Below, in pieces: positions 3,662-63,133 of a stretch of 64,000 nucleotides of DNA. Numbering within the stretch: position 1 is the stretch's first letter; each line of letters opens with the position of its first letter. Position numbers and translations under genes: made by a program. The stretch lies in IMG/VR virus record IMGVR_UViG_3300042453_005121, positions 1 through 64,000 of that record, one strand, 5' to 3'. The notes under the pieces are model-generated. The model searched no databases. It saw nothing but the letters and a program-made list of their open reading frames with translations, and had not been told where the DNA came from. This stretch comes from a virus.

Positions 3662-4474
3662 ATGCTCCGCTTCAAGGAATGGCTCATCAGTGAGGCCGCC
3701 ATAGGGCCCCAGAACATACAATACGACGCCCAAGGAAGACCCAACTTCAGGATTTACATCCAGAACGAAGGCCAGATCATCGGACTTGAAACACTTCAGG
3801 GTTCAAACTACAAGTACGCAGGCGACATGGTGAGCGACGACTTCGGGGACTCCGCACTCCTCAAGGGCTACAAACTCTACAACTGGCACGCCGACCTGCC
3901 GTCGGGAGCAGGGTACGGCCCTATGTTCTACGATATAGCCTTGGAGATCGCCACGAAGAACGGAGGTTACCTTGCCCCGTCCACGCTGCTGAATAGATTC
4001 AAGAACATATCTACGGCAAAGGACAATAAGGGCACTCTCGGGGGAGACGCAACGGACGCGGCAGAGGGCATCTACAAGTTTCTATACCAAAGACGAAGCG
4101 ACGTTGAGAAGATACAGCCCAACATCGTGCTCCAGAACGAACCCGATCAGGCCGCAAAGCCATGGATGTACGAACTGTACAGGAAGAGTCCGACGGTCCT
4201 GCCGAGGCTCATAGATATGAACGGAAAGGGGCAGCCGGTCCTTGTGTCGGGAACGGGCGTCAATGCTCAACCCATATCTGACATGAACTTCGGAACCTCA
4301 CAGGCCAAACCTCAAATCCAACAAACTCAGCCAGCACAGAGCCAGCAGTTCAAAGGCTTCCAACTCGGCGACCAGAGGACGTGGCAACAGAAACAACAAT
4401 ATCTTAATTCCATCGGAATAGACACGACAGGTTGGCAGAGACAGGAGATAATGAGAGGAGTCAAGACGGCCTGA
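3662..4474 (+). CDS. Hypothetical, possible GNAT-like protein with CTS-like N-terminus
   Basis: N-terminus MLRFKEWLISE; GAGYGPMFYDIALE resembles a GNAT acetyl-CoA-binding motif. Confidence 0.5.
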   Translation: MLRFKEWLISEAAIGPQNIQYDAQGRPNFRIYIQNEGQIIGLETLQGSNYKYAGDMVSDDFGDSALLKGYKLYNWHADLPSGAGYGPMFYDIALEIATKNGGYLAPSTLLNRFKNISTAKDNKGTLGGDATDAAEGIYKFLYQRRSDVEKIQPNIVLQNEPDQAAKPWMYELYRKSPTVLPRLIDMNGKGQPVLVSGTGVNAQPISDMNFGTSQAKPQIQQTQPAQSQQFKGFQLGDQRTWQQKQQYLNSIGIDTTGWQRQEIMRGVKTA

Positions 4475-5599
4475 TTAGAATCCGACCCTCTTCTTGTCCT
4501 CTTCCTTTTCGTGGAAGTTGTCCTCTGGATTGTATATCTCAGCCAAAGTCATCGGCTCTTCCGTGCGTCTGTCGGATCCGATGTCCTCTAATATCAGGTT
4601 GCAGTCTTCGGCGGGAAGGGCCTTGAAATGATGCTCAAGGAGCAACCTTCCCTTCCTCACCAGAGCTGGGTCAATGTTTTCCCTGTCTATGTTGAAAGTG
4701 GCTATCACCATTATGTTCAGACAGTCGCCGAGGATGCCGTCCGTTATGTTCAATATGTTGCTTATTGCCTCGTTGTCCTGAGTTGACCTGCTCCGCAAAA
4801 CCTTCTCGGCGTCCTCCAGAAGCAATATTGAATTCCTGTGCCTCATGATGAAACTGAGGAAATCGGGATTGGTCAACTGCTCGGCCGCACCGCTCGATAT
4901 GTAAATGACCTTCCTGTCGGTCTTGGTCGTGAGATACTTGATGAAGGTGCTCTTGCCGGTGCCCGGATCGCCCGACAAAAGGACCAAGCCGTTCTTGTTT
5001 TTGCCGAGATGCTCAACGATCCGATCAAATTTACCGGAAGCCTCGCTTCCGTAGTTCATATTTACGTCTATGTCCTCGCTCGGAAGCTTTATGTCAAACC
5101 TCTGAAGGCTCAGCATGCCGTCCATGCTGCACAATAGATAAATGTTGCCCTTCTTCTTGTTGTCGGTGTCCCTGTCCACGCACGATTTCAGTTTTTCGAG
5201 CGTCTCGGGACGCTGGTAGGCGATCCTGCACCTGTAGTAGAGGTCCTCGTTGTCCTGGGATTCCTCTTCCTCGTCTTCCTCGTCGCGGACGTATTCCAGC
5301 CTGCTCAGGAGACTCTCCCTCCTGAAAAGGTGGACCAAGGCGTCTTCAAATTCATAACAGGCCTCGGTGCCCTCAACTGTCAATTTATTCAAAATCAACC
5401 GCTCGGAATTGCACTCAAAAGTCCTTTTGGCACCAATTTTGTCCAGATTTTCAAGGGTGGAATTCTTGACGGGGACCGAAAATTCATAGACGTTCGGCTG
5501 GACCTCAAATTTCTCCACGTAGTAGTACAAGAAATTGAAATAAGAGCCGTAATCGTTGGAATGGGTCTTTTTTCCGTACGGATTGAATGAAGTTCTCAT
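4475..5599 (-). CDS. AAA+ ATPase
   Basis: Walker A GDPGTGKS, Walker B LLLEDAE, SRH ATFN...IDPALVRKGR. Confidence 0.9.
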   Translation of the reverse strand: MRTSFNPYGKKTHSNDYGSYFNFLYYYVEKFEVQPNVYEFSVPVKNSTLENLDKIGAKRTFECNSERLILNKLTVEGTEACYEFEDALVHLFRRESLLSRLEYVRDEEDEEEESQDNEDLYYRCRIAYQRPETLEKLKSCVDRDTDNKKKGNIYLLCSMDGMLSLQRFDIKLPSEDIDVNMNYGSEASGKFDRIVEHLGKNKNGLVLLSGDPGTGKSTFIKYLTTKTDRKVIYISSGAAEQLTNPDFLSFIMRHRNSILLLEDAEKVLRSRSTQDNEAISNILNITDGILGDCLNIMVIATFNIDRENIDPALVRKGRLLLEHHFKALPAEDCNLILEDIGSDRRTEEPMTLAEIYNPEDNFHEKEEDKKRVGF

Positions 5600-5788
5600 G
5601 CCTTGATTATATTAAATCCGATCAAAACGGCAAGGGCACAATCCAAATTTGGGTTGATAAGCATACTATACAGTTGGCGTCGCGTTCCATGCGGGCACGG
5701 GACTGCGAAAAAGAGGCCAGCGGGACTATATAGTTCCTACTTACCGGTATTGAGAAGGGCCGAAAACGAACTAGGAGTATAAATCAGT

Positions 5789-7585
5789 ATGAAAAGAAAA
5801 CTCATTGAATTTGACGCGTTCCAAAAACTGAAGACGGAATCGCTCACGAACACGCAGCAGGAACTGGCGGCCGCAGCCCCACTGCTTGCTAGGGCACTTG
5901 AAATTGAGGATTTGACCCTTGAGTCCTTCGGTCCCGAAGAGGCCCTTTTTGAGTCGGTGGACGGCGAGTTCGTCCACGCCAAGTACAGCATGAACAACGG
6001 CTACGTGCAGTTTGACAACGTAGAACAGCTCGTTCTCAGCGAGGAAACCGAAGTCGCCAAGACAAAGGACGTCATCTCCAAGATGATCGACAGACTCATC
6101 GAGAGCGACGAGAAGGGCGCCGAAGAGATGTTCTCAGAGTGGCTCGACCTCCCCCGCACCCGCAGGATTTTCAACGAGGTCAAGAAGCTCCGCGTGGTTC
6201 CGATCCGCAAGAAGGTCGGCGGAAAGACCAAAATCGTCGGATACAGGAAGGCCCGCTGGAACGCCACCCCGCACTCGCACGAGAGTTCGGGCAAGACCGC
6301 CCGCCGCATGCGTGGCAAGAAGATCGCCCAGAGGAAGATGCCCATGGGACTCAAGAAGTTCCTCGCCGCCAAGCGCGACAGGGTCAAGAAGACCATCGGC
6401 GAATGGCACGTTATAGCGGAGAACGTCCTCGGATACGTGGACCTCGCCGAGAACGGCCCGGCCCTCGACAGGTGCCAGGTCCTGCGCAACGAGGAAAACG
6501 TCGTCGGCGTCAGGGTCCCGACCATGAAACTCCGCAACGAGGCCAAGCTCCTCAAGTTCAACTGGAAGACCTTGAACACCGACGTGGTGGTCAAGAGGAA
6601 CGGCGGCAAGAAGATCAACGAGAATGCCGATTTCGTCAAGGAAATCGCCGACCTCAGGAAGTTCAACGCCGTCTCGGACGCGAAGGCCGTGGAAGAGTCG
6701 ATCGAAAAGATCGCCACGAATTTCCCCGGAGCCATCTACCTCACCGAGAGCGAACTCGCCCTCCAGATCAAGATGAGCCTCGAGTCCGTCAACGCGTCGA
6801 ACTACGACGACGAGACGTGCCGCTTCCTCGCGGAAGGCATCCTCAGGACCATCCACGAAAACTTCGTCGACCGCGTCGCGAAGATCGTGAAGCTCGCAGG
6901 AGCCGAGATCAACGAGAACGCAGCCGACAAGTACGCTGAATTCAAGAACGTCACCGAAGGCTTTTATGCCAAGGTCGACGAGTCCGCCGCCCACGAGATG
7001 CAGGCATACGTGGACGTGTACGAGGCCCTCAGGCAGGTTCACGAACTCGCCAAGGAAGAGACCAACCAGGAAGTCGCCCTTGAAACAGCGGCCCACCTGG
7101 ACGCCCTCCTGCCCATCGTCTCCGGAAAAGAAGACATGGACACCGAGGTGCTCGGAGAAGCCGCCGAATGGCTCTACGACATCGTGGAGAACACCATGGG
7201 CGACGAGTGGAACGTGAGTGAGCCGGTCGTCAGCGACAACGGTGATCACCCCGAGGTCGTGAAGAAGGGGAAGCAGACCCCATACGACTCGGAGAAGCCA
7301 GGCCATACGCCCGAGGCTCACCACACGAGCGACGGAAAGGACTACAAGGGAGACGCGGCGAAGGAACTCGCCGGAGACGGATGGAGCAATCTCGGCGGCG
7401 AGGGAGTGTATCCCAGCATCGAGAACCCCTACGTCCCAAGCGCAGAAGTGCCAAAGATCGTTGGAGAGAAGGACGTTGACAGCGACTCGGACCAGCTCGC
7501 CCAGTGGGGCAGCACCGACACCTGGCCCAGCCTCCAGAACCCCTACTCAAAGGCCTCGGTGACGCCCGACTCGGTCAAGGAATAA
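5789..7585 (+). CDS. Putative prohead core/scaffold-associated protein with a gp68-like basic segment
   Basis: First gene of the head operon, directly upstream of gp21. Acidic overall, with a central K/R-rich segment and several (L/I)xE sites. Confidence 0.55.
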   Translation: MKRKLIEFDAFQKLKTESLTNTQQELAAAAPLLARALEIEDLTLESFGPEEALFESVDGEFVHAKYSMNNGYVQFDNVEQLVLSEETEVAKTKDVISKMIDRLIESDEKGAEEMFSEWLDLPRTRRIFNEVKKLRVVPIRKKVGGKTKIVGYRKARWNATPHSHESSGKTARRMRGKKIAQRKMPMGLKKFLAAKRDRVKKTIGEWHVIAENVLGYVDLAENGPALDRCQVLRNEENVVGVRVPTMKLRNEAKLLKFNWKTLNTDVVVKRNGGKKINENADFVKEIADLRKFNAVSDAKAVEESIEKIATNFPGAIYLTESELALQIKMSLESVNASNYDDETCRFLAEGILRTIHENFVDRVAKIVKLAGAEINENAADKYAEFKNVTEGFYAKVDESAAHEMQAYVDVYEALRQVHELAKEETNQEVALETAAHLDALLPIVSGKEDMDTEVLGEAAEWLYDIVENTMGDEWNVSEPVVSDNGDHPEVVKKGKQTPYDSEKPGHTPEAHHTSDGKDYKGDAAKELAGDGWSNLGGEGVYPSIENPYVPSAEVPKIVGEKDVDSDSDQLAQWGSTDTWPSLQNPYSKASVTPDSVKE

Positions 7586-7595: not shown

Positions 7596-8309
7596 ATGAA
7601 TCTACTTTTGGAGCACGACCACACTCCAGGGACGCTGTATGAGAACAGACTCATATTCGGAGACGGCTGCTGCGCAGTCCTCAACGAAATGGACCTGCAC
7701 GAGGCCGCCGGAAGCGCCGGACTCGTCAAGTTCAGAGGCAAGTTCCAGGAGGCCGACGCCATCAACAAGAACAAAAGGACTTACCCCTTCGGCGTACTTG
7801 ACGACAACGTCAAGTCGCTGAGCGAGAGCATCAAGAACGGAGGGCTCATCGGAGAACTAGACCACCCCACCGACAGCATAGTCCATTTCGCCAACGCCAG
7901 CCACAAGATCACAAAGCTGTGGTGGGAGGGAAAGACCCTCATGGGCGAAGGTGTCATACTGAACACACCCCACGGAAAGATTCTCAAGGCGCTCATCAAC
8001 GACGGTGTGCGCGTGGGGATCAGCAGCCGCGGAGTGGGTAACGGAAAGGTGAACGAACAAGGAATCCTCGTCATCGGAGAAAGCTACAAGCTCATAACCT
8101 TTGACGCGGTCGCCGACCCGAGCACCAGCCAAGCCTTCCAGGAGAAAGTGGTCTCCAAGGAAAGCACAATCCCCGTGTCAATCCCGACGGAAGAGCACAG
8201 GGCAGTAAAAAATGAAGCCAGCGGCATACATACCCTAAGCAAGGAACTTGTTATCGCCGCCATAGGCGGAATTGTCCAGAAACAAGCCAAAGAAATAAAG
8301 AGAGGTTGA
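7596..8309 (+). CDS. gp21: Prohead protease (T4 gp21-like)
   Basis: Motifs NKNKRTYP, GELDHP, ASHKI, TPHG, GISSRGVG and FDAVADPS. Confidence 0.95.
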   Translation: MNLLLEHDHTPGTLYENRLIFGDGCCAVLNEMDLHEAAGSAGLVKFRGKFQEADAINKNKRTYPFGVLDDNVKSLSESIKNGGLIGELDHPTDSIVHFANASHKITKLWWEGKTLMGEGVILNTPHGKILKALINDGVRVGISSRGVGNGKVNEQGILVIGESYKLITFDAVADPSTSQAFQEKVVSKESTIPVSIPTEEHRAVKNEASGIHTLSKELVIAAIGGIVQKQAKEIKRG

Positions 8310-8313: not shown

Positions 8314-9228
8314 ATGGAAAAAATTGTTGAGGCCCTTACCAAGTTGCTGCCCGAGGACGCCGTCGCCGAAGTGACGGAGGCCGTCAAGACCGAACTCGAG
8401 GGAGCAAAGCAGGCTTACGAGACCGAGTACTCCTCGAAACTTGAGGAAGCCTACGCCGAACTCTCCGAGGAGCTCAAGAGCGCCGAAGAGACCGCCATCC
8501 AGGGCTACAAGGAGGCCTACGCAATAATCCAAGACCTCCGTGCCCGACTCGAGACCCAGCAGAAGGAATTCGACGTCAGCCTCGAAGAAGGCTACGAAGA
8601 AGCCTACCAGATGCTCCTCGCCGAAAAAGGCAAGAACGAAAACCTCGAGGTCGAGATGTACGAGCAGTTCAACACCAAGCTACAGGAAATGAAGGAATAC
8701 ATGATCGACAAGGTCGACGCCTTCCTCCAGTACAAGGGCTCGGAAATCTACGAGACGGCCAAGAAGGACATCAGCAATGATCCCAGAACCGCCGAACACA
8801 AGGTCGCCCTAGACAAGATCGTCGAGTGCGTGGCCGATTACGTCGACGCCGACGCGTTCAACGCTGCCGCCGAGACCAAGGTCGAAGAGACCAACCGCAA
8901 GATCGAGGAACTCAAGAGCCAGACGAAAATCCTGGAGGCCAGGAACATCAGGCTGAGCGCCGAGAATACCAAACTCACCGAGGCAGTCCGCGAAACCCAG
9001 AAGGTCATCACGGAAAGCGCCAAGGTCGAGAAGAAAGAAAGAACTGAAAAGGCCAAGAATGTGCAGGGGAGAGGACGTGCCGTCAACGATTCGGAAATTG
9101 TCGCCGAATGGAATGGCAACAAGGCCGAAGAAAAGAAGACAAACGTTGACACCACTTTGGTCGAGGCTCTCGATCCTGACCTGCTTCGTCAAATGCAGGT
9201 CCTAGCCGGAACGAAGAACAACGACTGA
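8314..9228 (+). CDS. gp22: Prohead scaffold protein (T4 gp22-like)
   Basis: Acidic coiled-coil protein between the protease and MCP genes; contains KVDAFLQY. Confidence 0.75.
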   Translation: MEKIVEALTKLLPEDAVAEVTEAVKTELEGAKQAYETEYSSKLEEAYAELSEELKSAEETAIQGYKEAYAIIQDLRARLETQQKEFDVSLEEGYEEAYQMLLAEKGKNENLEVEMYEQFNTKLQEMKEYMIDKVDAFLQYKGSEIYETAKKDISNDPRTAEHKVALDKIVECVADYVDADAFNAAAETKVEETNRKIEELKSQTKILEARNIRLSAENTKLTEAVRETQKVITESAKVEKKERTEKAKNVQGRGRAVNDSEIVAEWNGNKAEEKKTNVDTTLVEALDPDLLRQMQVLAGTKNND

Positions 9229-9265: not shown

Positions 9266-10693
9266 ATGCAAGCTAATGCCAAGTTTCTAAACGAGGCGAG
9301 GGAGCTGGAATCTCGTTGGGCGCAGACAGGTTTGCTAGAGAACATCAATGACAAGTACACACGTTCTTGCACTGCCGTTCTCCTCGAAAACCAGCGCCTG
9401 ATCAACGAGTCCTCGACCGACTCGGGCGACGTCGCCCAGTTCAAGAGAATCTCGATCCCGCTCGTTCGTCGTATCTATCCGCAACTGATCGCCAACAAGG
9501 TCGTTTCGGTCCAGCCGTTGCTCGGCCCGACCGGCCTCGTGTACTACCTCCGCTTCCGCTACGGTAGCAACAAGGGTTCGGTCCGCGGCGCCACCAAGAG
9601 TGGCTTCCCCACCGACGACGCCAACTCGCTCCAGCAGCTCGCCAGCGGCGACGCCAACCTGAGCGTGTACTACTCGCACCAGTTCGTTGAGAACGAGTCG
9701 AGTGCAGTCGACGTCGGCGGCACCAGCACCAGCCACACGCTGGAGCACACCCCGGTCCTCGCAGGTACCGTCACCGGTACGGTGTATGACGGAACCGTCG
9801 CCGTCCAGACCTTCGTGGTCTCGGAGAGCGGCTCGTTCACGTTCACCGACATCGGCACCCCCTCGCCCAAGGTCACCAGCGCCACGCTGAACCTGACCAC
9901 CGGCGAGATGGCGTTCACCTGGAACAGCGACCCGGGTGCAAACAAAGTTGTCGTCTCATATGAGTACAACATGGAGTGCAACCAGGACCTCCCCGAAATC
10001 AACCTCGTCGTTGAGTCGGAAGAGATCGCTGCCAAGACCCGCAAGCTGAAGGCCGTCTGGAGCTACGAAGCCCAGCAGGACCTCCGCTCGCAGCACAACC
10101 TCGACGCCGAGGCTGAGCTCACCGCCGTCCTGGCACAGGAGATCAACCTCGAGATCGACCGTGAGGTTCTCTCGGACCTGCGTAACAACGCCGGCACCGT
10201 GGCCTCGTGGGACTTCAACACCGCCCTTGGTGACACCATCAAGGAAAAGTATGAGTCCCTCTACGTCAAGGTCGTCGAGGTCAGCAACGTGGTGCATCGC
10301 AAGACGCTCCGCGGCGGCTGCAACTGGCTCGTGACCAGCCCCGAAGTCGCCTCAATCTTCGAGACGGCCACCGCTGGTTTCGCTCCGGCTCCGTCGGAAG
10401 GCTTCACCTCGTCGCTCGGCATCCAGTATGTCGGCACGGTGAACAACCGCTGGAGGCTCTACAAGGATCCGCTGTTCCCCACGGGACAGATCCTCATGGG
10501 CTATAAGGGCGACTCGTACATGGACAGTGGTTACTTCTACTGCCCGTACGTGCCACTCACCCAGACGCCAGTCGTGCTCGATCCCGAGTCCTTCTGCCCT
10601 CGTAAGGGAATACTCACGAGGTATGGGAAGAAGCTGCTAAGAGAGGGCGCGAAATTCTACGCCAGACTCAGCATAGCAAATTTTGTGATATAG
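9266..10693 (+). CDS. gp23: Major capsid protein (T4 gp23-like)
   Basis: Motifs LLENQ, PLVRR.P.LIA, VQPLLGPTGLV, AKTRKLKA.WSYEAQQDL, EINLEIDRE, GYFYCPYVPL and TRYG. Confidence 0.97.
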   Translation: MQANAKFLNEARELESRWAQTGLLENINDKYTRSCTAVLLENQRLINESSTDSGDVAQFKRISIPLVRRIYPQLIANKVVSVQPLLGPTGLVYYLRFRYGSNKGSVRGATKSGFPTDDANSLQQLASGDANLSVYYSHQFVENESSAVDVGGTSTSHTLEHTPVLAGTVTGTVYDGTVAVQTFVVSESGSFTFTDIGTPSPKVTSATLNLTTGEMAFTWNSDPGANKVVVSYEYNMECNQDLPEINLVVESEEIAAKTRKLKAVWSYEAQQDLRSQHNLDAEAELTAVLAQEINLEIDREVLSDLRNNAGTVASWDFNTALGDTIKEKYESLYVKVVEVSNVVHRKTLRGGCNWLVTSPEVASIFETATAGFAPAPSEGFTSSLGIQYVGTVNNRWRLYKDPLFPTGQILMGYKGDSYMDSGYFYCPYVPLTQTPVVLDPESFCPRKGILTRYGKKLLREGAKFYARLSIANFVI

Positions 10694-14532: not shown

Positions 14533-14961
14533 ATGAAAAGTTTCTATGAGTTTTGGATGATGATGGAGGACTACGACTCGTGGTTGGGGAAGCCCTATCA
14601 GGACGCCGAGGAGGACTATCGTCGCCGCTCAAATTTCTCGAGGTTCTTGGGCGAAGGTGACGAAGAGGCTCCGTTCAGCCTTGAGGTGGATGTGCGTGAT
14701 GGCGAGTGGGAGGCAAGAGGGGGCATATGGGTCAAGGATTACGTGCCTAACGGGTCCGAGAATCCGGCTAGCGAGCCGCAGTTGTTCAAGGCTGGCGACC
14801 AGGGGCACGAGAGCAGCGCCGGAACTTGGTTCAAAAAAGCGGGTCGGGATTTGGAACTTCTTCCTGCGCACATCAGGGCCGAGGCCACGAAGTGGATTGA
14901 TCAGAAAGTTGAAGATGCAATAGCCAATTACGAGCCGGAAGATCCGAGAGACATGTACTAG
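14533..14961 (+). CDS. Hypothetical with CTS-like N-terminus
   Basis: AAGGAG SD; starts MKSFYEFWMMMED. Confidence 0.65.
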   Translation: MKSFYEFWMMMEDYDSWLGKPYQDAEEDYRRRSNFSRFLGEGDEEAPFSLEVDVRDGEWEARGGIWVKDYVPNGSENPASEPQLFKAGDQGHESSAGTWFKKAGRDLELLPAHIRAEATKWIDQKVEDAIANYEPEDPRDMY

Positions 14962-23325: not shown

Positions 23326-23682
23326 GTGAAGACTTTTTATGAGATGCTTTCGCTGATGGAAGAAGACCAAGGTGAAGATGTGGCCGCGACGCCTGAAGCC
23401 GGCGGCGAGGGTCTGGGCGACCAGTCGGGCCAAGGGACTGAGACTCAGCCAGAAAGTGACCCCCAGCAAGGCGAGCAGAAGGCGTCGCACTACATGTTCT
23501 TCTCAAACCTCAAGATGATCAAGGAGAAGGCTGAGGCGATGCTCGCCATGGACCAGTCCAAGGTTGACGAGATGCTCGGGGACGGACACGACTGGGCTTC
23601 GGATCACATATCAACGAGCAGGGACGACGTAGAGGAAGTTTATAACTGGCTTTCTGGCGAGCTGGGCGGGCAAGGGTCCTAG
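23326..23682 (+). CDS. Hypothetical with CTS-like N-terminus
   Basis: GTG start with AAGGAG SD; MKTFYEMLSLMEE. Confidence 0.7.
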   Translation: MKTFYEMLSLMEEDQGEDVAATPEAGGEGLGDQSGQGTETQPESDPQQGEQKASHYMFFSNLKMIKEKAEAMLAMDQSKVDEMLGDGHDWASDHISTSRDDVEEVYNWLSGELGGQGS

Positions 23683-34057: not shown

Positions 34058-34078
34058 ATTCAACAACTAAATACATCC

Positions 34079-42764: not shown

Positions 42765-44051
<1,287 letters not shown>

Positions 44052-47748: not shown

Positions 47749-48181
47749 CCGGCTTGAGCTTCTCTTGGTGCCTGTCCGGCTCGTCCTTCAAACGGTGCAT
47801 CATGTTCATCAATTCCTTGACCATCTCAGAAGGGGTGTCGTTCTTGCACTTCTCAGACCTCTGAACGGCTATGCTCTTGCGGTCCTTGTTATAGAAGCCG
47901 TTTGATATTATGAAACAACCGCCGTCCTCCCGGCCGCTGTAACTCACCATCCCGACCCACTCGCCGTCGTCCCAGTTCCTGGACGAGGCCATGATTCTGA
48001 TGGGTCCGTTGTCAAATACCTGCTTCACGTGGTAGCCGCGTTTCTTGACGGCCGCGCTCACGTAACCGAGGGCTATGCGGGCGAAACCTTCAAGGACCTC
48101 CTTTGTCTTGGTCCTGTAGTTTACTTCCACGCTGTAGCGGTGGTCTCCCTCGTTCAGTTTCATCCAGTCGTGGAACCTCAT
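47723..48181 (-). CDS. Hypothetical with CTS-like N-terminus
   Basis: MRFHDWMKLNE; ATATATA-N5-ATG upstream. Confidence 0.7.
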   Translation of the reverse strand: MRFHDWMKLNEGDHRYSVEVNYRTKTKEVLEGFARIALGYVSAAVKKRGYHVKQVFDNGPIRIMASSRNWDDGEWVGMVSYSGREDGGCFIISNGFYNKDRKSIAVQRSEKCKNDTPSEMVKELMNMMHRLKDEPDRHQEKLKPVKMKRGPK

Positions 48182-48200
48182 ACCACTATATATGAATGAA

Positions 48201-50754: not shown

Positions 50755-53598
50755 TCACACCGGCCAGTACTCCTCCACCACCGCCAGATAATCCTTGAAC
50801 GATTCTGACATAGCTTCTTCCGCTCCGGGAATTTGCGCAGCCACTGCCGCCTGCATTTCCTTGTCTATCTTCTTGATTTCCTTCTGGGCGTCTACGATCT
50901 TCTTGAGTGCCTCGGGATCGTGTTCGGCATCGTGATAATGCTTCCTGTATCTTTGTATTATCGCGGCGATCTCTCTTTTCTTCTGAACCCTGTCAAACAA
51001 ATCCCTGTCCAAGCCAGAGCCCACGATGTACTGTATGTTGACGGGATGGTTCGTGTTGATCCTGTATATCCTGCCTTCGCTCTGCTCGGCTGACTCCGGC
51101 GTCCAATCAAAGTCGTTGATGACCATGTGTTGGGCCGCGTTCGGGAAGTCTATGCCCGTTCCGCCCATCTTCATGCTCATGACCAGAACCTTGGCGTCGG
51201 GATCGTTTGTGAATCTGGACTTGACCTTTTCCCTGTCGGCCTTCTTTGTGTCGGACAGGTAAGTGAGAACGTGGAACTTCGGGTCTATCTTTTTGAGTGC
51301 CGCATCGATCTTCTCGGCCAGTTGACGGCCCGCCGCGATGAAATTGCTGAACACGACTGTCTTGCTGGCTGCGGGTGGTTTGTCCTTTCCCTCGTTGACG
51401 ATCCTTATGACCTCTGCGGTCGTCTTGTCGGTTTTTAATTGCGCCACGGCTTCCCTTGCCGCTATGAGACGGGATATGGGAAGACTCGGGTCTTTGTATC
51501 CCGATATCCTGTCGGAGAATATGCCTTGGAACTTGTCTTGATCTATGGAGGCTCCTTGATTTGAAACCGACAAGTTCGGCATGTCCCTGATGTCTTCCTT
51601 GCTTCTTCTCACGTATACGCCCGAAAGGTTGAGCCACTTGTTGAGCCTTTCTGCGGCGCGTATCTCATCCTCGTCGCTGTCGCTCTTCTGCAGCGATCCT
51701 CCGTATCCGCCTCCCACCATGCCTGCAAAGTCCCTCTTGAACTTGGCCTCGCTGACCCTTCCGAGGTGATGGCCTGTCATGGCGAGTTGATTCCTGACGT
51801 CCATGGGCTTGTTGGACGATACGGTGGCGGAGGCTCCCCACTTGGTCGGTATTTTCTCAACGACCTTGGCGATGTTCTGGCTTCTCTTGCTCTTGCTGTG
51901 CTTCACCTTGTGCAGTTCGTCGAAGATCACGATTCCGAATCCGGTGCCGGAAAGCTTGGAGACGACTTGGTCCAGGTTCTTTCCGCTGGAGAAGTTTTCG
52001 TAGTACAAGACCGTCCATTTGCCGGGATTGAGCGGGTCCGTGGAGATTTTGGATTTTTCTTCATCTCCTACGACGTTCGTTATTTCTTCCACCCACTGCT
52101 TCTGGGTGGCTTTGAGTGTGACGACGAGAACGGGCTTGCCGTCCCTCTGCATCCTGAGAGCAGCGGCGCTGACAAGTTGGATCGTCTTGCCCACGCCAGT
52201 TGCGTCACCGAGTATCGCGTGGTCGCGTCCGTAGAGGAAGGCTATGCCCTTCTTCTGCGCGTCGTACAATTCAAATTTGCTTTCAGGAAGTTTGTCCTCG
52301 ATCTTGGACGCGAATTCTTCGTCGTCGTCGTGCTTTCCTTCCCACACGGATTCCTGAAGTCTTCCGTCCTTGAGCTTAGCCCGGACTATGTCTCTCAACT
52401 CGGACACCTCGTATCCGAACCTCTTGAGCAGTCTTCCGAAATTGACGTACTGCTTGTAGTTTCCCGAAACCGTGTAGTAGAAATCCGCCCTGTTCCATTC
52501 GTAGTCCGGGAATGTGTATTGTATTGACTCCTTGATGAATTCCTTCCTTCCCTGATCCAAGGCCCTGTAGTTGACCCTTATCCTCAACTTGTCCCCGCTG
52601 TCGTCGGTGAATTTGATCACGTCGGAGGTGGATCGCGGGGTTTCGGTGGGCGTGGTCTTTTCTCTGGCGAATTTCTCAAGCGATGTCGTGTCGTATCCTT
52701 GGCGGATGAGTTCGTCGGCCACGGACCGGAAATTGGCCGAGTCGGTGTCTATGAGGAACCTTGAAGGCCCCGGCTTATAGGATATTCCCTTGGGAGAAAG
52801 ACCCTTGCTCTTCATTGCTTCAAAAGTGGCCTTGCTTCGTTCGTACGGAACGTTGAACCTGATGGCTATCTTTGTGCCGAAGTCTGTCTTCTCCTCACCT
52901 ATGATTTCTATTTCATCAGCTTTGGAGGGAGTCGCCTGCTGCGAAGCCGGGAGAGATGGTTCGGAACCAGATTCGTACTCCACATCCATGCCTTTTGATT
53001 TGATGACCTGTGCGATTTGGGGGAGTATGCCCTTGTGCACCCTGTAGGTGTGCATGCCGGTCCTGTCCTGGGAGAATTTCTTGAACCGAGGGAGTTTCAT
53101 GTTGCCATAGGCGTCCTGCGAACGTTCGGCACCCTCGGCCTCGAGAGCGGCGTCCACGATCCTGTTTATCTGGATCGTCATGGACCTGTCCACCCCGTGG
53201 GGGATGTAGACCTTCACCTTGCCGTACTCAAGCGGCTGTTTGTCGTACACAACGGCCTTGTCGCCGGACGAACCCGCACGAACGGCCTCCATGTCCTTGG
53301 CAACCAGAGAACTGATCTGCTGGTAATTGGGGACTTGGGTATTGCGGTAGTGGGACAGCATCCGGAGCATGAGGTCGGCAGCCCTTACGGGTACCGATAT
53401 GCTGTCGATGTGTCCGTTGGCGAGAAGGGATTGGTAGGAGGTCCAGTCCCCCTTGTTGAATCCGTAATCGTTGAATTCCTTGGGGACTCCCCTAGAGGCC
53501 ATGTCCCTCATCGCGGCCTGAAGGGCCTTGATGCCCGGCCCGGTGACCGTGGACTCAACCGACTCCCTTATCCCCATCCAATCAGAAAAACCCATCAT
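50755..53598 (-). CDS. SNF2/SF2 helicase-like ATPase with CTS-like N-terminus
   Basis: GDATGVGKT, IFDELH, SAT, GGTGIDF and Q.EGRIYR; N-terminus MMGFSDWMGIRES. Confidence 0.88.
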   Translation of the reverse strand: MMGFSDWMGIRESVESTVTGPGIKALQAAMRDMASRGVPKEFNDYGFNKGDWTSYQSLLANGHIDSISVPVRAADLMLRMLSHYRNTQVPNYQQISSLVAKDMEAVRAGSSGDKAVVYDKQPLEYGKVKVYIPHGVDRSMTIQINRIVDAALEAEGAERSQDAYGNMKLPRFKKFSQDRTGMHTYRVHKGILPQIAQVIKSKGMDVEYESGSEPSLPASQQATPSKADEIEIIGEEKTDFGTKIAIRFNVPYERSKATFEAMKSKGLSPKGISYKPGPSRFLIDTDSANFRSVADELIRQGYDTTSLEKFAREKTTPTETPRSTSDVIKFTDDSGDKLRIRVNYRALDQGRKEFIKESIQYTFPDYEWNRADFYYTVSGNYKQYVNFGRLLKRFGYEVSELRDIVRAKLKDGRLQESVWEGKHDDDEEFASKIEDKLPESKFELYDAQKKGIAFLYGRDHAILGDATGVGKTIQLVSAAALRMQRDGKPVLVVTLKATQKQWVEEITNVVGDEEKSKISTDPLNPGKWTVLYYENFSSGKNLDQVVSKLSGTGFGIVIFDELHKVKHSKSKRSQNIAKVVEKIPTKWGASATVSSNKPMDVRNQLAMTGHHLGRVSEAKFKRDFAGMVGGGYGGSLQKSDSDEDEIRAAERLNKWLNLSGVYVRRSKEDIRDMPNLSVSNQGASIDQDKFQGIFSDRISGYKDPSLPISRLIAAREAVAQLKTDKTTAEVIRIVNEGKDKPPAASKTVVFSNFIAAGRQLAEKIDAALKKIDPKFHVLTYLSDTKKADREKVKSRFTNDPDAKVLVMSMKMGGTGIDFPNAAQHMVINDFDWTPESAEQSEGRIYRINTNHPVNIQYIVGSGLDRDLFDRVQKKREIAAIIQRYRKHYHDAEHDPEALKKIVDAQKEIKKIDKEMQAAVAAQIPGAEEAMSESFKDYLAVVEEYWPV

Positions 53599-53603
53599 GT
53601 TTC

Positions 53604-53661
53604 TATCTAGCAAAACTGACACTCATTTGCGCGTTCTAAAACCATCACATTTTGATATATA
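53604..53661. promoter_or_regulatory. Divergent pair of nTAnATA boxes for the helicase and J-domain genes
   Basis: CTAGATA-gaaac-ATG (-, 53598) and ATATATA-tcaac-ATG (+, 53667). Confidence 0.65.
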
Positions 53662-53666
53662 TCAAC

Positions 53667-54923
53667 ATGATGAATTTCAGAAAATGGTTGAACGAGGCCG
53701 CGATGTTGATGAGTCCCGCCGAGGCCGTGCGCGAACTTGGACTGGCACCCGAGGGAACTCTGGAGAGGGAGACGCTGAATGCAGTCTACAGGAAGATCGC
53801 TCTGGAGACGCACCCGGACAGGAATCCCGACCCCGAGGCGGCGGCAAGGTTCAAAAGGGCGGCAGAAGCCTACGAGGTGCTTCTTCCTTTCGTGGGAGGA
53901 CCCGTGCCGGGCGAGGGTTCCGTGCCTCCGGAAAGAAAATACGAATACGACCCAGAAAATGACGCCAGAAACGAATTCTACAAACAATGGGCAAGGCATT
54001 TGGCTCCAACTGGACAATACTCCATGGGAGAGTTTGACGAATGGATCAGGCAGATCGTTGAAAACCAATTCTTTCAGGTGAAGGTAAGACAGACGGTCGG
54101 CTACGTTACGTGGGGCATGAAGATCGGAAAGGACGAGCACACGATGCCCCTCGGTAGCGTCAACAGGACCTTCAGGGTGACAGGATACGCAAAAAAAGGC
54201 ACGGGCGTCCAGAAATCGCCGATGGACTCAATCAAGGAACTCTTCGCCCCATACATGTCAAGGCTTCCGGAGTTCATAGTGGACATGAAGATAAAAAACA
54301 GCGCTAATTGGCGGGAGGCGTGGATAACCATGGAACTCCCGAGCGGCAAATACCAATCGGTCAGTTTCTTCCCGGTGGAGAAGAAGGAGAAGAAGGCTCC
54401 AGGCGTGGGTATGAAGAAGGACGAAGTTTCGGAACACTTGCGATCTTCGGGCTTGACGTTCGCGGGGAGTTACACGGCCGGTGACAACTACGGCGTGTCC
54501 GAATCGCCAATGGGTTACTTCGTTCAACTCGGGCCGAAGGTCATAAGGATAATAAGGAGATACAGGGGAGACTACCACGGGAAGAAGACGATAGAGACCG
54601 TGAACGTTGCGTCCGAGCACTACGGAAACATGACAAAGGAACTTCTTGACAAGTACGTTGCGACCGTACGGAGGAGGTCGCAGCAAAACGAGGCGTTCGT
54701 TCACAGTAGCGATATGAACCCTAACTTCGCCATGGCCGTATATTCAATAATGCACAACAAGGCCTCGGCTGCAGACTGGAATCTTATTGACAGCATCCCG
54801 AAGGACAAAGCCCTAGGAATGATCAGAGGGATTCTGGAGGACAACGGCGTGGAGGGCGAAGAACTGGATCGTGAGATGGAGTGGTGGGGAAAACAAATAG
54901 CCTCAACCGGGAAGTGGAACTGA
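53667..54923 (+). CDS. J-domain (DnaJ N-terminal) protein with CTS-like N-terminus
   Basis: YRKIALETHPDRNPDPEAAARFKRAAEAYEVL; MMNFRKWLNEA. Confidence 0.85.
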   Translation: MMNFRKWLNEAAMLMSPAEAVRELGLAPEGTLERETLNAVYRKIALETHPDRNPDPEAAARFKRAAEAYEVLLPFVGGPVPGEGSVPPERKYEYDPENDARNEFYKQWARHLAPTGQYSMGEFDEWIRQIVENQFFQVKVRQTVGYVTWGMKIGKDEHTMPLGSVNRTFRVTGYAKKGTGVQKSPMDSIKELFAPYMSRLPEFIVDMKIKNSANWREAWITMELPSGKYQSVSFFPVEKKEKKAPGVGMKKDEVSEHLRSSGLTFAGSYTAGDNYGVSESPMGYFVQLGPKVIRIIRRYRGDYHGKKTIETVNVASEHYGNMTKELLDKYVATVRRRSQQNEAFVHSSDMNPNFAMAVYSIMHNKASAADWNLIDSIPKDKALGMIRGILEDNGVEGEELDREMEWWGKQIASTGKWN

Positions 54924-54939: not shown

Positions 54940-55446
54940 TCAACCCACCTTCCCGGGTTGGTTGTACGTTATTTCGTACTCGCGCTTGGCGATCCTGTAG
55001 TATTTGCCGTCTTCCTCGCGAACGAGGTAATCTCCCGGCTTCAAAACCATGCTTTCTCCCCAAGGCGCCAAAAAATTAACCACGGCATTGCCCGTGTAAG
55101 CGGCGACGTTCCTCGGACTCTGCTCCGGGTGCACAGGGTCTCCCATCTGGCCAACGTACATCTTCTGGAACTTGGCGGGCTTGATCGCATATTTCTCTCT
55201 GCTCGGGCCGCTAATGATGATATCGTTCTGTTCGGCCACGTTCTGCGTCTCCTTACCGTCGCTGGTCATTGTGGTCACGGTCATTCGTTCGGGAGCGACC
55301 GCATAACTCATTGCCGGCATGTCGGTACTGTATTGGACGAAGTTGTAAACTAGTTTTTTCTTTGTGGTGGGCAGGAAATTAAGACCGGCGGCGATCTGGT
55401 TGATGTCAATCTGGTTCTCAAGCATCCATTCGTTGAATTTTTTCAT
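54940..55446 (-). CDS. PGDYG-like domain protein with CTS-like N-terminus
   Basis: MKKFNEWMLEN; F.APWGE.M.LKPGDYLV...YRIA...TY. Confidence 0.65.
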   Translation of the reverse strand: MKKFNEWMLENQIDINQIAAGLNFLPTTKKKLVYNFVQYSTDMPAMSYAVAPERMTVTTMTSDGKETQNVAEQNDIIISGPSREKYAIKPAKFQKMYVGQMGDPVHPEQSPRNVAAYTGNAVVNFLAPWGESMVLKPGDYLVREEDGKYYRIAKREYEITYNQPGKVG

Positions 55447-58747: not shown

Positions 58748-59155
58748 GTGGAAATGAAGCATCTTGAAGAAGTGAACATGAGTTACGCAGGTCACTTGGG
58801 GCTCGCCATGTTGAATTCATTGCGGCTGCTTGTTTCCTCCGTGGCTCTTTTTATCCATGCATTATTTCCATTTTTATTCACTCACACGGCCTCCGGTCTT
58901 ATGGAGGATGTTCGGAACTCATTTCCCAAGGTTGGTAATGACAGGATACTGGTGAGATTCAACACCAAGTGGAAAGAAGACCCGGAGAAGAGGCAATGGA
59001 GGGTTTTGGTAAACGGCGTGGAGACTTTGGCTAATGATGTCTTTATAAAAAATGGCTCCGAGACAGTGGAGGAAGAAATATCTGGGGAGAAGAAGTTTCA
59101 TTTCTTGTGTTTTGGCAAAGTCACATGGCAAGATGGTTCGGCAACTATAACATGA
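58748..59155 (+). CDS. DUF6356-like membrane protein with a C-terminal extension
   Basis: HL..VNMSY..H...IHA.FPFLF. Confidence 0.6.
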   Translation: MEMKHLEEVNMSYAGHLGLAMLNSLRLLVSSVALFIHALFPFLFTHTASGLMEDVRNSFPKVGNDRILVRFNTKWKEDPEKRQWRVLVNGVETLANDVFIKNGSETVEEEISGEKKFHFLCFGKVTWQDGSATIT

Positions 59156-60126
59156 ACAAAATCAACTTCAGAAAATGGTTTGAGTCCTCCGGCCTTGACG
59201 CCCTCTTGTCGGTGATTAGCGACAAGCACCCGGGATTGAAGATATATGCCTATGAGGGCAGGGAAAAGATTGAACTCATGGAGATAAAGGTCCCCGAGGA
59301 ATCTAGGGGCAAGGGAGTCGGCACCGAGGTCATCAAGATGATTCAGGACTACGCCCGTTCGGTCGGAAAGCCAATAGTCCTGAGGCCCGAGGCTGATAGG
59401 GGGAGGAAGGGCGACCTAGAGAGGTTCTACAGGGGCTTGGGATTTGTTCACAACAGGGGGAAGAACACGGACTTCGTTCTTTCTTCTCCCACGAGCAGGA
59501 CCATGTACTGGAGGCCTAGCGTGGACGAGTCTGTTCGCGTGACGGACACGTGGCCCATTAACAAATTGTTTTATGACATGGACAATCCCAAGGAAAGAAG
59601 GCAGTACGAGAAGGATTTGCAGGACCGTTTAGAAAGACTTAAAAAGCCCGAAAAGAAGATCGTTTCAGAAAAGTTGATGAGGGAGCCGTACACCATAACG
59701 TGCTGGCGTGGGTTTGACATGAGATCATTTGAGAGGGATGTATCGCTAGATTCCGGGGCACTGCGAATCAAGGGCGACAGGGCGATGGAGGGAATGCTTT
59801 GGTTCACTCACTCGCTCCAGCCGCGTCATGAATTTGACCCGAAGGAATATGCGATCGGACATGCGCGAGGAGACGGCTATTTGCTCACGTATCCATTGGT
59901 GTGCGAGAGAAGATACAAACTGATAACGTACGACGACGGTTCTACGTCAACGGATGGCCCAGATGAGCGTGTGAATCAGACGGAATTGAGCGACAAGGGA
60001 TTTTTCTGGGGTTCTCTTTACGACCTTCCTCCCGGGTGGTTCTTCACATGGCAGGTTCAAAAGCACATTGGATTCAAGGGATTATTGAAAATTGACATGG
60101 GCATGCTTGAGAGGATAGAGGAATGA
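59152..60126 (+). CDS. GNAT acetyltransferase plus a second (ART-like?) domain, with CTS-like N-terminus
   Basis: INFRKWFES; VPEESRGKGVGT and LERFYRGLGF; second domain WRG...WFT...YA. Confidence 0.7.
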   Translation: MNKINFRKWFESSGLDALLSVISDKHPGLKIYAYEGREKIELMEIKVPEESRGKGVGTEVIKMIQDYARSVGKPIVLRPEADRGRKGDLERFYRGLGFVHNRGKNTDFVLSSPTSRTMYWRPSVDESVRVTDTWPINKLFYDMDNPKERRQYEKDLQDRLERLKKPEKKIVSEKLMREPYTITCWRGFDMRSFERDVSLDSGALRIKGDRAMEGMLWFTHSLQPRHEFDPKEYAIGHARGDGYLLTYPLVCERRYKLITYDDGSTSTDGPDERVNQTELSDKGFFWGSLYDLPPGWFFTWQVQKHIGFKGLLKIDMGMLERIEE

Positions 60127-61004
60127 TGGGATTTTCGGAGTGGTTTTTGAGCGAGGCTCGGACTCCAAAGGTCATCATGTACCACGGAACGGCGTTCAGG
60201 AACTTGAGGCCGATAATGTCGCACGGACTTCTTCCCAATCCAAAGGGAAGGGCGTGGCAGGAAGATCCCGACTCGTCGTTCCACAGCGCCAGCAGGGCTT
60301 CTCTAGATGGCATATATCTCACCCGAAATCTGATGACTGCTCTTTCTGCTGCCAGCAACGGGGCCAATAGGAAATACATCAAAGAGGGCGATCTTTTGGT
60401 TGCGGTGGAGATGCAGCCGAAGACCGCGTTTGCCGACGAGGATGACCTCAACTTCATGGCTACCGTATCCAACATGGAGATGAGGGTGGCCGATTTGTAT
60501 TATTCATTGGAGAAGGGCGGTCCGGAAGGTCATTTGGAGGCTGCCAAGAACGAGTACAAGGATAGGTTCTTCTCCAGGGTGGGTTCGGAGGTTTCCTTGA
60601 ATCCCCTCGTCAAGGAACGTCTTGATTCAATGGTGGACTCTGTATTTGAGGCCGCGCTGAGGAGGCAGGCCGCCTATGTGGGCTACTACATGAAAAACTA
60701 TTTCAAAGACATCGGTATTCCCGACAAGAACGAAGCCGAAAGAAATTTCATGATGGCGAGGGAGGCATTGACGAGGACGCTCAAGTCGCTCGCAAATCCA
60801 TTCAACTACAAAAACGAGCCGTTCAATCTCACGGCAAGGGTGGAGGAGCCCATAGGATTCAGGGGATCAAACAGGATAGTTTGCATTTTGCACGTGCCGT
60901 TTGATTACAAGGAAAAGCCGAGGCTCGTGTACGGAACGGTCCCAGAAGATTTGATCAAGCAATGGGGGGAACGAAAGGGCGAGTGGAAGGGCGCTACCAC
61001 CTGA
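60123..61004 (+). CDS. Putative ADP-ribosyltransferase-fold protein with CTS-like N-terminus
   Basis: MMGFSEWFLSEA; MYHGT...I...GL.P...GIYLT. Confidence 0.6.
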   Translation: MMGFSEWFLSEARTPKVIMYHGTAFRNLRPIMSHGLLPNPKGRAWQEDPDSSFHSASRASLDGIYLTRNLMTALSAASNGANRKYIKEGDLLVAVEMQPKTAFADEDDLNFMATVSNMEMRVADLYYSLEKGGPEGHLEAAKNEYKDRFFSRVGSEVSLNPLVKERLDSMVDSVFEAALRRQAAYVGYYMKNYFKDIGIPDKNEAERNFMMAREALTRTLKSLANPFNYKNEPFNLTARVEEPIGFRGSNRIVCILHVPFDYKEKPRLVYGTVPEDLIKQWGERKGEWKGATT

Positions 61005-61609: not shown

Positions 61610-61947
61610 TTTTTGATTAGTAGTTCTCCGACGACCTCCATGCGTCCGAGAAGTTCTTGAAATCCTTTCATGTCTGTTTTTTCTATCTTGTCCATCATGG
61701 AGTGCAGTTGTGAGCAGAGATCAACGTATTCTTTCTTGAGTTTTTCGGGGTTAAATTTGCCTTCTTTCGCTTGCTTGTAATATGGCAATTTGACCCTGAA
61801 ATGGTCGCGAGTAAGAAGTGCTGCTCCTCCTTTTTCTTCTGCTGCGTCCGCAATCTTCTTGGCGCCGTCAAACCTTTTGCCGGAGAATTCTTTTAATTCT
61901 GATTCTGATGATTCGTTGATTCCTGACAGTACAATCCAATCGTTCAT
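61582..61947 (-). CDS. Hypothetical protein
   Basis: 121 aa; GGAG SD; early INES site. Confidence 0.6.
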   Translation of the reverse strand: MNDWIVLSGINESSESELKEFSGKRFDGAKKIADAAEEKGGAALLTRDHFRVKLPYYKQAKEGKFNPEKLKKEYVDLCSQLHSMMDKIEKTDMKGFQELLGRMEVVGELLIKNQDLGQTLK

Positions 61948-61972
61948 GTGAATTCTCTCCCCTTATTATGGT

Positions 61973-63133
61973 TCATCCAGTCTTGAACTTTTCCTTTCTC
62001 AAGTCATCCATCAGGTCGCGATCGGACATGATTTCCTGCGAGTCCTTGAGCGACGCTGTTATGTAGTGCACAGTTCCCCCGTACCCTCCTTTTTCCGAGT
62101 ACTTCTTTGCGTCGCCGAAATCTGCATCGGGGCGTCTCAGTCTCACCAGTTCCTTGAGTTTATAAAAGTTGTCCTCCAAGTCGTCGGGATATGTGCTGCT
62201 GATCGTGACGGATGATCTGGAGAATCTCACGACGCCCCTAGATGTTTTCTTTGGTTCGGGTTTGAATTCGTTGGGCTTTGCATCCAAGCTCTTGTCTTCT
62301 TCTATGTCGTCGAATGCCTCTCCGAAGAGTCTTTCCATTGCTCTCTTGTCGGCGAAGTGGAATCCAGGCTTGTTGTGGGCCTTCAATGCGGCGATTACGT
62401 CGTGGAGTCTGGATTCGGAAAGGCCGTATTTCTTCGCATTCTTTTCCATCCATTCCGAAAGGTTTTGATTATCAGAAGGGTTGGCCGAATGTCCTTGGCC
62501 GAACTTCTTGAGTGAAGATATCTTGTCCACCATTCTCTGTATGTTCGGCGGAAGTGGAACGGATCTACCGAGCGGGAATCTTCTCGCCGGGTGATACTTT
62601 CCTGAGGTGAACGCGTCGTGCTTGTCCTTTATGACTAGGTCTTGCTGGTCTTGTGGAGTGGTGGGGTGGAACTGAGCACTTGTGATGTCTATGTAATGTC
62701 CCTCGGCCTCCACCCACCAGTGTTGTTGGGGGCTCTTCATGTTGTGGCCCTTTGGTGGGTTGGCGTCGTTGAGTCCGATCGCATACCCGGCGTGGTATCC
62801 CGGCTCTGGGGTTCCGTACCATCCGGCAACCTTTCTTGCCTTGAACCCTTTTTCCCTCAGGAATTTTGCTAGGTCGTCCGCCGCGTTAACGCACGTGAAG
62901 GATAGCGGATGGTGCTTGAATGGAACCACTCCCAAACTCTTGTCGTAATCCGTTCCGAGTTCGTCCTCAACGTGTTTTGGATTGTTTGGATCAAAGTGCA
63001 TGTTCTTTGGGCGCGTGATGTAATAGCACTTTTGGGCTCCGGGCTTTTTGACGAGATATTCTTTTACTGCGGCTTCAAGACGTTCCTTCATGCTCGGGGA
63101 AGGGTCGGCGAGCCACTCCATGAATGTCTTCAT
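61973..63133 (-). CDS. Transglutaminase/papain-like Cys-His-Asp protein with CTS-like N-terminus
   Basis: MKTFMEWL; TCVNAA...HWWVE...YIDITSAQF. Confidence 0.65.
   Translation of the reverse strand: MKTFMEWLADPSPSMKERLEAAVKEYLVKKPGAQKCYYITRPKNMHFDPNNPKHVEDELGTDYDKSLGVVPFKHHPLSFTCVNAADDLAKFLREKGFKARKVAGWYGTPEPGYHAGYAIGLNDANPPKGHNMKSPQQHWWVEAEGHYIDITSAQFHPTTPQDQQDLVIKDKHDAFTSGKYHPARRFPLGRSVPLPPNIQRMVDKISSLKKFGQGHSANPSDNQNLSEWMEKNAKKYGLSESRLHDVIAALKAHNKPGFHFADKRAMERLFGEAFDDIEEDKSLDAKPNEFKPEPKKTSRGVVRFSRSSVTISSTYPDDLEDNFYKLKELVRLRRPDADFGDAKKYSEKGGYGGTVHYITASLKDSQEIMSDRDLMDDLRKEKFKTG

Follow-up and report, generated by a model that had tools for sequence, protein, structure and literature searches.

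The tagged genes of the contig

The stretch of DNA analysed here (the window) comprises 64,000 nucleotides of the IMG/VR virus record IMGVR_UViG_3300042453_005121 and is the first 64 kb of one 150,762-bp contig, the numbering of which is used throughout. It contains a module of phage head genes together with many genes whose products begin with a short peptide of a common form, here called the tag. A sequence-only reading of the window had claimed 17 such N-terminal peptides. All 17 were found, 12 on the plus strand and 5 on the minus strand, opening reading frames of 75-947 amino acids (aa), two of which (23326 and 34363) have GTG starts. That list proved complete for the window, an 18th gene starting just outside it, and about 11 more tags occur on the rest of the contig (66043, 84457, 93453, 94264, 98894, 98926, 99729, 131594, 132875, 137622 and 137894), giving ~29 tagged genes among ~170, about one in six. 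Gene calls were home-made, and the caller missed five real small tagged genes.

In the first half of the window, a tagged protein of 270 aa with no family match (3662-4474, +; MLRFKEWLISE/AA, where the slash denotes the predicted cleavage position) is encoded inside the head module, between portal and protease. It is followed at some distance by an acidic protein of 142 aa (14533-14961, +; MKSFYEFWMMME/D) and a very acidic one of 118 aa (23326-23682, +; GTG start, (M)KTFYEMLSLME/E). Four small genes are then clustered on the plus strand, encoding proteins of 95 aa (34079-34366; MLTFREFRDSE/S, with TAAATA 5 nt before the ATG), 113 aa (34363-34704; GTG start, (M)KKFSEWRDSIDE/N), 104 aa (34712-35026; MKSIREWMTE/K), which is a paralog of the preceding one, and 99 aa (35023-35322; MKSFLVWLEGE/E). 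Further along are a 775-aa protein with weak zinc-ribbon hints (39099-41426, -; MSSFKEWLIIE/S), a 75-aa protein (41524-41751, +; MKSFLNWVKE/E), a very acidic 428-aa protein (42765-44051, +; 30% D+E; MLSYKEYKLLNE/S) and a basic 152-aa protein (47723-48181, -; MRFHDWMKLNE/G, with TATATA 5 nt before the ATG).

The remaining tagged genes of the window include those for a 947-aa SNF2/helicase-family ATPase (50755-53598, -; MMGFSDWMGIRE/S, with TAGATA 5 nt before the ATG), a 418-aa J-domain protein (53667-54923, +; MMNFRKWLNE/AA, with TATATA 5 nt before the ATG) and a 168-aa protein with a PGDYG domain just under the cut-off (54940-55446, -; MKKFNEWMLE/N). A GNAT-like protein of 324 aa (59152-60126, +; MNKINFRKWFE/SS) is followed by a 293-aa protein with a possible ADP-ribosyltransferase (ART)-like fold and an invariant YHGT (60123-61004, +; MMGFSEWFLSE/ARTP). 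Next come a 386-aa protein with a weak transglutaminase-core hint and no Glu close behind its tag (61973-63133, -; MKTFMEWLAD...) and the 3' part of the 18th gene (63130-64000, -), which starts at 64629 and encodes 499 aa (MKTFMEWLFHE/N). The last two genes share their first 8 residues (MKTFMEWL) and nothing else; adjacent but otherwise unrelated, they match at 23 of their first 24 nt (63110-63133 and 64606-64629, both -), which suggests recent copying of the tag between them. Beyond the window, a tagged 104-aa protein (93139-93453, -; MLTFHQFLILE/A) is otherwise near-pure Pro/Gly low-complexity sequence.

The nearest public record is LR756511.1, an uncultured 595-kb phage genome whose major capsid protein shares 78.6% identity with that of the contig; we therefore regard the contig as part of a huge phage genome. 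The phage itself is an uncultured freshwater one, and its closest cultured counterpart is Flavobacterium phage vB_FspM_immuto, with 40% identity in the capsid protein. The capsid gene of this clade has 401 matches in IMG/VR, and our sample of related loci consists of 80 IMG/VR loci around related capsid genes, 969 kb in all.

Features and statistics of the tag

All start codons in the six frames of the whole contig were scored for F/Y-x-acidic-aromatic-hydrophobic near the N-terminus. The score was reached at 26 of 646 starts lying within 45 codons of a called gene start, compared with 4 of 2,090 deeper in-frame starts (Fisher p = 3e-13) and 9 of 5,755 starts that lie outside genes or in another frame (p = 2e-19), five of these nine being real small genes. 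The motif marks true gene starts. Among the window's tags, those at 34079 and 42765 are weaker variants in which F or Y replaces W.

Pooling the contig, LR756511 and the 80 IMG/VR loci gave 133 distinct tags, selected by M-x-x-[FY]-x-[ED]-[WFYM] alone. These tags are 9-13 residues long and define a lineage consensus of M-K-[TS]-F-x-E-[WYF]-[LIV]-x(0-3)-E. F is present at position 4 in 91%, with E/D at 6 and W/Y/F at 7 as selected; positions that were not selected are also biased, namely K2 (59%), T/S3 (66%), L/I/V/M8 (81%) and a Glu at 9-12 (75%). Of 17 tags picked by a rule blind to whatever comes behind the Trp, 15 had a Glu at +2 to +5 after the aromatic residue, against an internal background of 24% at that spacing (p = 5e-8). 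When tags are aligned on the Glu, 87% have a hydrophobic P3, partly as a by-product of tag positions 7 and 8, and 43% have N, S or A at P1'.

The claim that the tagged proteins are unrelated was borne out: with the first 15 residues removed, the only clear similar pair is 34363/34712 (E = 5e-8), and three further pairs are similar only at E ~0.005. Descent of all tagged genes from one paralogous family was rejected, the proteins being dissimilar once the tag is removed. Read directly, the tags do not resemble Sec/Tat signals or membrane anchors, as a Glu or Asp is conserved at position 6 and at the end and no tag contains a hydrophobic core of ~10 or more uninterrupted residues. Complete tag-like peptides were also found away from the N-terminus in two cases: the tagged J-domain protein has MGEFDEWIRQIVE at residue 120 (54024-54062, +), and a 598-aa head-operon protein has MFSEWLDL at residue 114 (6128-6151, +); these may be gene-fusion relics or internal starts.

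The head module and its predicted cleavage sites

The window begins with a gp20-type (T4) portal protein gene interrupted by an intein (39-2432, +; Pfam Portal_T4 6e-76, Intein_splicing 9e-11). Directly following it are a methylase-like gene (2432-3196, +) and a gene for a ParB-N-like nuclease-domain protein (3193-3645, +), the product of which begins MNLFEWLLGLL, a tag-like sequence with F-E-W spacing and no Glu behind it. The first gene of the head operon (5789-7585, +) encodes a 598-aa protein of no family, with an N-terminus (MKRKLIE/F) that is kept across relatives; it is a candidate prohead-core or internal protein. Next is a prohead protease of the T4 gp21 family (7596-8309, +; Pfam Peptidase_S77 3e-27; MNLLLE/H). 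The presence of a gp21 homolog, which the sequence-only reading had asserted, was confirmed by a match to the T4 gp21 structure 5JBL (E = 6e-16) in which the catalytic residues His (ELDHP) and Ser (SSRG) both align, and this protein is presumably the tag-removing enzyme. It is followed by an acidic helical protein at the T4 gp22 position (8314-9228, +; MEKIVE/A, conserved in 77 relatives), which from its position and composition is a putative scaffold and the presumed docking partner of the tag. The operon continues with the major capsid protein of the gp23 family (9266-10693, +; Pfam Gp23 1e-84 from residue 56; MQANAKFLNE/A).

These head proteins appear to carry the same type of cleavage site as the tags. 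L/I-x-E is the gp21 cleavage rule (PMC5694885, PMC9026906), with which the hydrophobic P3 and the Glu of the tag agree. The capsid protein has an N-terminal extension of ~50 aa in which the first [LIMFV]-x-E site, FLNE/A, ends at residue 10; there are 4 such sites in the first 52 residues compared with 8 in the other 423. The hydrophobic-x-E openings of the capsid, scaffold-like, protease and 5789-7585 proteins are conserved in dozens of relatives, and T4 gp24 (MAKINELLRE/S) and gp22 (MLKEQLIAE/A) open with the same type of site. As in the short T4 gp24, gp22 and gp23 propeptides, which gp21 removes, a hydrophobic-x-Glu lies within the first 10 residues of the head proteins here, although these lack F-x-E-W and their cleavage sites are predicted.

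Comparison with the T4 capsid targeting sequence

The capsid targeting sequence (CTS) of T4 is MKTYQEFIAE (PMC8442874), which agrees with the lineage consensus at every constrained position. In T4 IPIII, targeting depends on residues 4 and 7 according to suppressor analysis, and 8 and 10 determine processing (PMC9026906). These four mapped positions are the conserved positions of the tag, 4 and 7 having been selection criteria in our analysis.

As a positive control, a DNA-level pattern made from the lineage consensus (M-K-[TS]-[FY]-x-[ED]-aromatic-like) was run over the whole T4 record, which gave 5 matches compared with 0 for the reversed control. Three of the five are the start codons of ipI (MKTFKEF...), ipII and ipIII; the other two are the start of gp61.1 and a site inside denB.1. 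Gene 61.1 (NC_000866.4 18966-19130, -) begins MKTFKEFIKE/D, which is almost a perfect CTS, and is annotated in the record as hypothetical only. To our knowledge gp61.1 is not a known virion protein.

Genome-wide, LR756511 contains 41 tag-like N-termini in called genes and 5 outside them, many behind cTAAATA-N4-5-ATG; the stricter pattern M-x-x-F-x-[ED]-W gave 11 matches in this genome and none in LR756508, Syn9, LIS04 or immuto. The 80 related IMG/VR loci contain 140 tag-like starts representing 122 distinct peptides. Judged from these sequences, the tag in this form appears outside its clade only in the T-even phages, where Phe takes position 7; this could reflect the divergence elsewhere of an ancient signal, or convergence. 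Our literature searches found no account of such a tag in huge phages.

Conservation of the tag as a peptide

The tags vary in their synonymous codons: both Phe codons (TTT, TTC) and both Glu codons (GAA, GAG) occur, Leu has four different ones, and there is free variation at the non-conserved positions. On account of this synonymous variation, a nucleic-acid cassette was rejected. Only 7 of 31 tagged proteins match anything in LR756511, and the orthologue test is therefore limited to six pairs, all six of which keep the motif with different letters. Examples are MGTFKEWLINE versus MKSFASWFNE and MQFKEFILDE versus MEFKKFLITE. In LR756511 the orthologue of 34079 begins MTFLEAWE, that of 41524 MVKTFMQWAEE and that of 47723-48181 (58% identity) MLNFKDYVEE. 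Among the IMG/VR sequences, the tag of the SNF2 protein (MMGFSDWMGIRE) corresponds to MIDFQTWKLINLWE and MKSIKFLIENNE in orthologues. Orthologues of 3662-4474 are rare (in 3-4 of the 80 related loci) and likewise keep the tag with other letters (MTNFKEWLISE, MFAFREWLMNE). The tagged set turns over fast between close relatives, as do the internal proteins of the T-even phages (PMC3012670, PMC12373910).

The GNAT gene and the ART-like gene, which overlap here by 4 nt (ATGA; 59152-61004, +), provide a view of the tag in fused proteins. We found 17 homologs of the 60123-61004 protein, the stand-alone forms of which begin with a tag and then L-x-E/ARTP, except for three without a tag that are probably cut gene calls. 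Four longer homologs (408-425 aa), from metagenomic relatives, have a GNAT domain, the counterpart of 59152-60126, fused ahead of the 60123-61004 domain. In all four the tag is present only at the GNAT N-terminus and F-x-E-W has gone from the junction, which nevertheless keeps hydrophobic-x-E/A (L-x-E/A in three and I-T-E/A in the fourth), although the junction Glu could belong to the downstream domain. The internal copy is lost, as would suit a signal confined in its action to the N-terminus, and the fused forms are as expected if F-x-E-W were the address, read at the N-terminus, and hydrophobic-x-E were a cleavage site useful in its own right.

Identity of the tagged proteins

Most of the tagged proteins have no family match in Pfam or PHROGs. 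Of the identities proposed by the sequence-only reading, the SNF2 ATPase (Pfam Helicase_C 1e-13, SNF2-rel_dom 3e-10) and the J-domain protein (Pfam DnaJ 8e-10) are well founded. Where several GNATs had been proposed we find one, 59152-60126, for which the evidence is weak: Pfam GNAT families fall below the cut-off, it matches phrog_10691 (2.6e-15) and its fused homologs carry precomputed GNAT families. The ART-like label of 60123-61004 is likewise weakly supported (PDB Tpt1 E = 0.075, Pfam PARP E = 0.15); its AlphaFold model is poor (mean pLDDT 63.5, and <50 across much of the putative catalytic part), and a Foldseek search of PDB with this model returned nothing at E <= 0.001. The transglutaminase-like label of 61973-63133 stands at a similar level (Transglut_core E = 0.12), and a tagged sigma-like protein was not recovered when the tagged proteins were searched against Pfam and PHROGs. 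Further Pfam matches that are sub-threshold and plausible are a VLTF3-like zinc finger (93674-94264) and an HD domain (132875).

The possibility that the motif is as common in non-virion early genes was also considered. None of ~20 recognisable replication, recombination, nucleotide-metabolism and sugar-metabolism proteins of the contig carries the tag. The untagged proteins include the large and small subunits of ribonucleotide reductase (RNR), SbcC/D-like proteins, DnaB, PolA, gp32, RecA/UvsX and DEAD helicases, as well as PrkA, YeaH, SpoVR, a C5 methylase and glycosyltransferases. The tail sheath, portal and capsid proteins also have no tag. Other untagged genes encode a subtilase (S8; 44639-45664, +), a phiEco32-like COOH-NH2 ligase (46774-47748, +), a DUF5122 beta-propeller protein (15222-17423, +) and a collagen-repeat protein (contig 101721-103760, -). 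Besides the portal gene, two more genes are interrupted by selfish elements, that for SpoVR by an intein with a LAGLIDADG domain (contig 142507-145332, +) and that for a DEAD-box helicase by a LAGLIDADG domain (contig 96103-98628, +).

A promoter-like hexamer at the tagged genes

No more than 8 nt separate the hexamer TA[ATG]ATA from the start codon in 10 of 26 tagged genes, compared with 8 of 142 untagged genes (p = 3e-5), and in 5 more tagged genes it lies 9-45 nt upstream with a GGAG-like site between. It was seen 4-6 nt before many start codons, for example within 3650-3661, 34067-34078, 48182-48193, 53599-53610 and 53655-53666. At such distances there is no room for a Shine-Dalgarno site behind the hexamer, and the transcripts may therefore be leaderless and of a late type. 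The hexamer resembles the T4 late promoter TATAAATA. The motif is also found upstream of the head operon (CTATATAG, then TATAAAT, at ~5725 and ~5778) and precedes a gene beside the sheath. From these sites, co-expression of the tagged genes with the head genes is plausible.

A predicted capsid targeting signal

We consider it likely, on the basis of sequence, that the shared leader is a T4-type CTS carried by an unusually large and diverse set of cargo proteins. The interpretation given by the sequence-only reading is thus partly supported: its core, a T4-type leader cut after Glu by the gp21 homolog and grafted onto unrelated proteins, passed every in silico test that could be applied. The phage probably packs dozens of unrelated proteins and, by analogy, perhaps injects them into its host. 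According to the mechanism we envisage, residues 2-8 would form a short amphipathic helix, the aromatic residues 4 and 7 of which would dock a newly made protein onto the scaffolding core during prohead assembly, this core being formed by the gp22-like 8314-9228 protein and perhaps also by 5789-7585. After closure of the shell, the protease (7596-8309) would cut behind the Glu at position 9-12, at a site comprising hydrophobic-x-Glu and then a small or polar residue. The tag would leave, the mature protein would remain in the head with the DNA and, by analogy with T4 IPI-III and Alt (PMC12373910), the cargo would be delivered with the DNA to the next host.

The likeness to the T4 CTS extends to the leader, which takes up 10-19 residues at the N-terminus of proteins with nothing else in common, and to its register (M-K-T, aromatic residues at 4 and 7, E6, an aliphatic one at 8 and E at ~10 followed by a small residue). 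In both cases the genome also encodes a gp21-family protease and a gp20/gp23 head, and the cargo changes fast. There are also differences, since Trp rather than Phe dominates position 7 and the spacing to the Glu ranges from 2 to 5 residues. The ~29 tagged genes in 150 kb here, and ~41-46 in the 595-kb relative, compare with 3 in T4 and at least 10 reported across the T-even phages. The predicted cargo here includes large enzymes and not only small basic proteins, and its genes are scattered on both strands, many with the promoter-like hexamer at the ATG.

The phiKZ-like phages (SPN3US, 201phi2-1) similarly load many head-internal proteins, including enzymes, by means of N-terminal propeptides, which are trimmed after Glu by a gp21-related protease (PMC5694885, PMC10052503). 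These propeptides are mostly >100 residues long (~80-270), have no short consensus and are cut at A/S/G-x-E (PMC5694885), in contrast to the 9-13 residues, strict consensus and hydrophobic P3 of the tags described here. With respect to cargo, the SNF2, GNAT and ART repertoire recurs in polyvalent proteins and P1 DarB, for which packaging and delivery with DNA are either known or predicted (Iyer et al. 2017, PMC5512222). ParB-like and methylase genes are also nearby here, and the proposed role, delivery with DNA and early action in the host, is alike. Polyvalent proteins unite their domains in one giant polypeptide, whereas here the proteins are separate and individually tagged; the GNAT and ART-like pair, split or fused among relatives, is the only fusion.

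Several observations weigh against this interpretation. Nothing shown for T4 comes near a complement of ~30-45 cargo species, some as large as 775 and 947 aa, and the scaffold-like 8314-9228 protein has neither detectable gp22 homology nor any family match. The tags at 34363 and 63133 have no Glu at the usual distance, and the preference for K2 and T3 could partly reflect translation efficiency. The tag-like start of gp61.1 means that a matching N-terminus alone is no proof of packaging. Whole-record pattern scans revealed no tag in LR756508, Syn9, Listeria phage LIS04 or immuto, and this cultured relative also appeared tagless when 100 of its 160 kb were read in addition to the scans. Since the motif is missing from these intermediate T4-type phages, the likeness to the T4 tag may be convergent rather than homologous.

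Alternative explanations

It is unlikely, in our view, that the tag addresses some other destination, serving as a docking helix for a shared hub (a chaperone, compartment, membrane or polymerase, for instance), with its T4 likeness being convergent. The gap among intermediate T4-type phages, the J-domain in one tagged protein and the presence of such an N-terminus on T4 gp61.1, annotated only as hypothetical, would be compatible with this, but it leaves unexplained the Glu at a fixed short distance, the L-x-E/A at fusion junctions, the same type of site opening the capsid, scaffold-like and protease proteins, and the singling out of ipI-III by the pattern. For a membrane-binding helix in particular, the conserved acidic residues are a further difficulty. 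Alternatively the tag might load the prohead as proposed, most of its cargo being assembly or core components that are degraded or retained rather than injected effectors. The small, very acidic tagged proteins 14533, 23326 and 42765 (22-30% D+E) are indeed scaffold- or core-like, and T4 gp67 and gp68 are also core-associated (PMC5694885). We nevertheless judge this to be distinctly unlikely, as the SNF2 ATPase, J-domain protein and GNAT have no obvious assembly role, such domain types recur in packaged, injected polyvalent proteins and P1 DarB (PMC5512222), and the set turns over fast in the manner of T-even internal proteins.

A nucleic-acid function of the shared 5' coding sequence, either as a translation-initiation element or a downstream element in leaderless mRNA, or as a mobile regulatory cassette, would account for the ten of 26 tagged genes with the hexamer 4-8 nt ahead of the ATG, for Lys at codon 2, which is common in well-translated genes, and for the 23 identical nucleotides of two neighbours. 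It is very improbable, however, given that the F, E and L codons vary synonymously while the variable positions differ freely, that orthologues conserve residues and not bases, that the tag is equally found behind Shine-Dalgarno-type leaders and that the internal copy decays selectively in fused genes. Chance, or a single paralogous family, can claim the adjacent paralogs 34363/34712; we attach almost no weight to it in view of the enrichment at true starts (p = 3e-13), the lack of similarity beyond the tag among the other proteins and the 140 tag-like starts with 122 distinct peptides in the 80 related loci.

Returning to the T4-type signal, a broader evolutionary proposal can be put forward more tentatively, and we hold it as possible rather than likely. 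It is that the tag is an ancestral loading signal of the T4 superfamily, the use of which has expanded approximately ten-fold in a freshwater clade of ~500-600-kb phages, with dozens of proteins being packed and injected. With every cargo protein tagged individually, and often provided with a separate late promoter, these would in effect be 'unbundled' polyvalent proteins.

Implications

Proteins injected with phage DNA act before phage gene expression, and those of T4 disarm restriction enzymes and reprogramme RNA polymerase. If the tag works as in T4, a sequence rule would list the packaged cargo of a whole abundant clade, providing ~30-45 candidate early-acting proteins per genome, most of them of unknown function, as well as a short peptide that could be transferred to foreign proteins to load them into large capsids. 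The split and fused forms of the same genes would then link two known strategies, the internal proteins of T-even phages and polyvalent proteins, and the injected proteome of uncultured giant phages would, if this is true, be readable from sequence alone.

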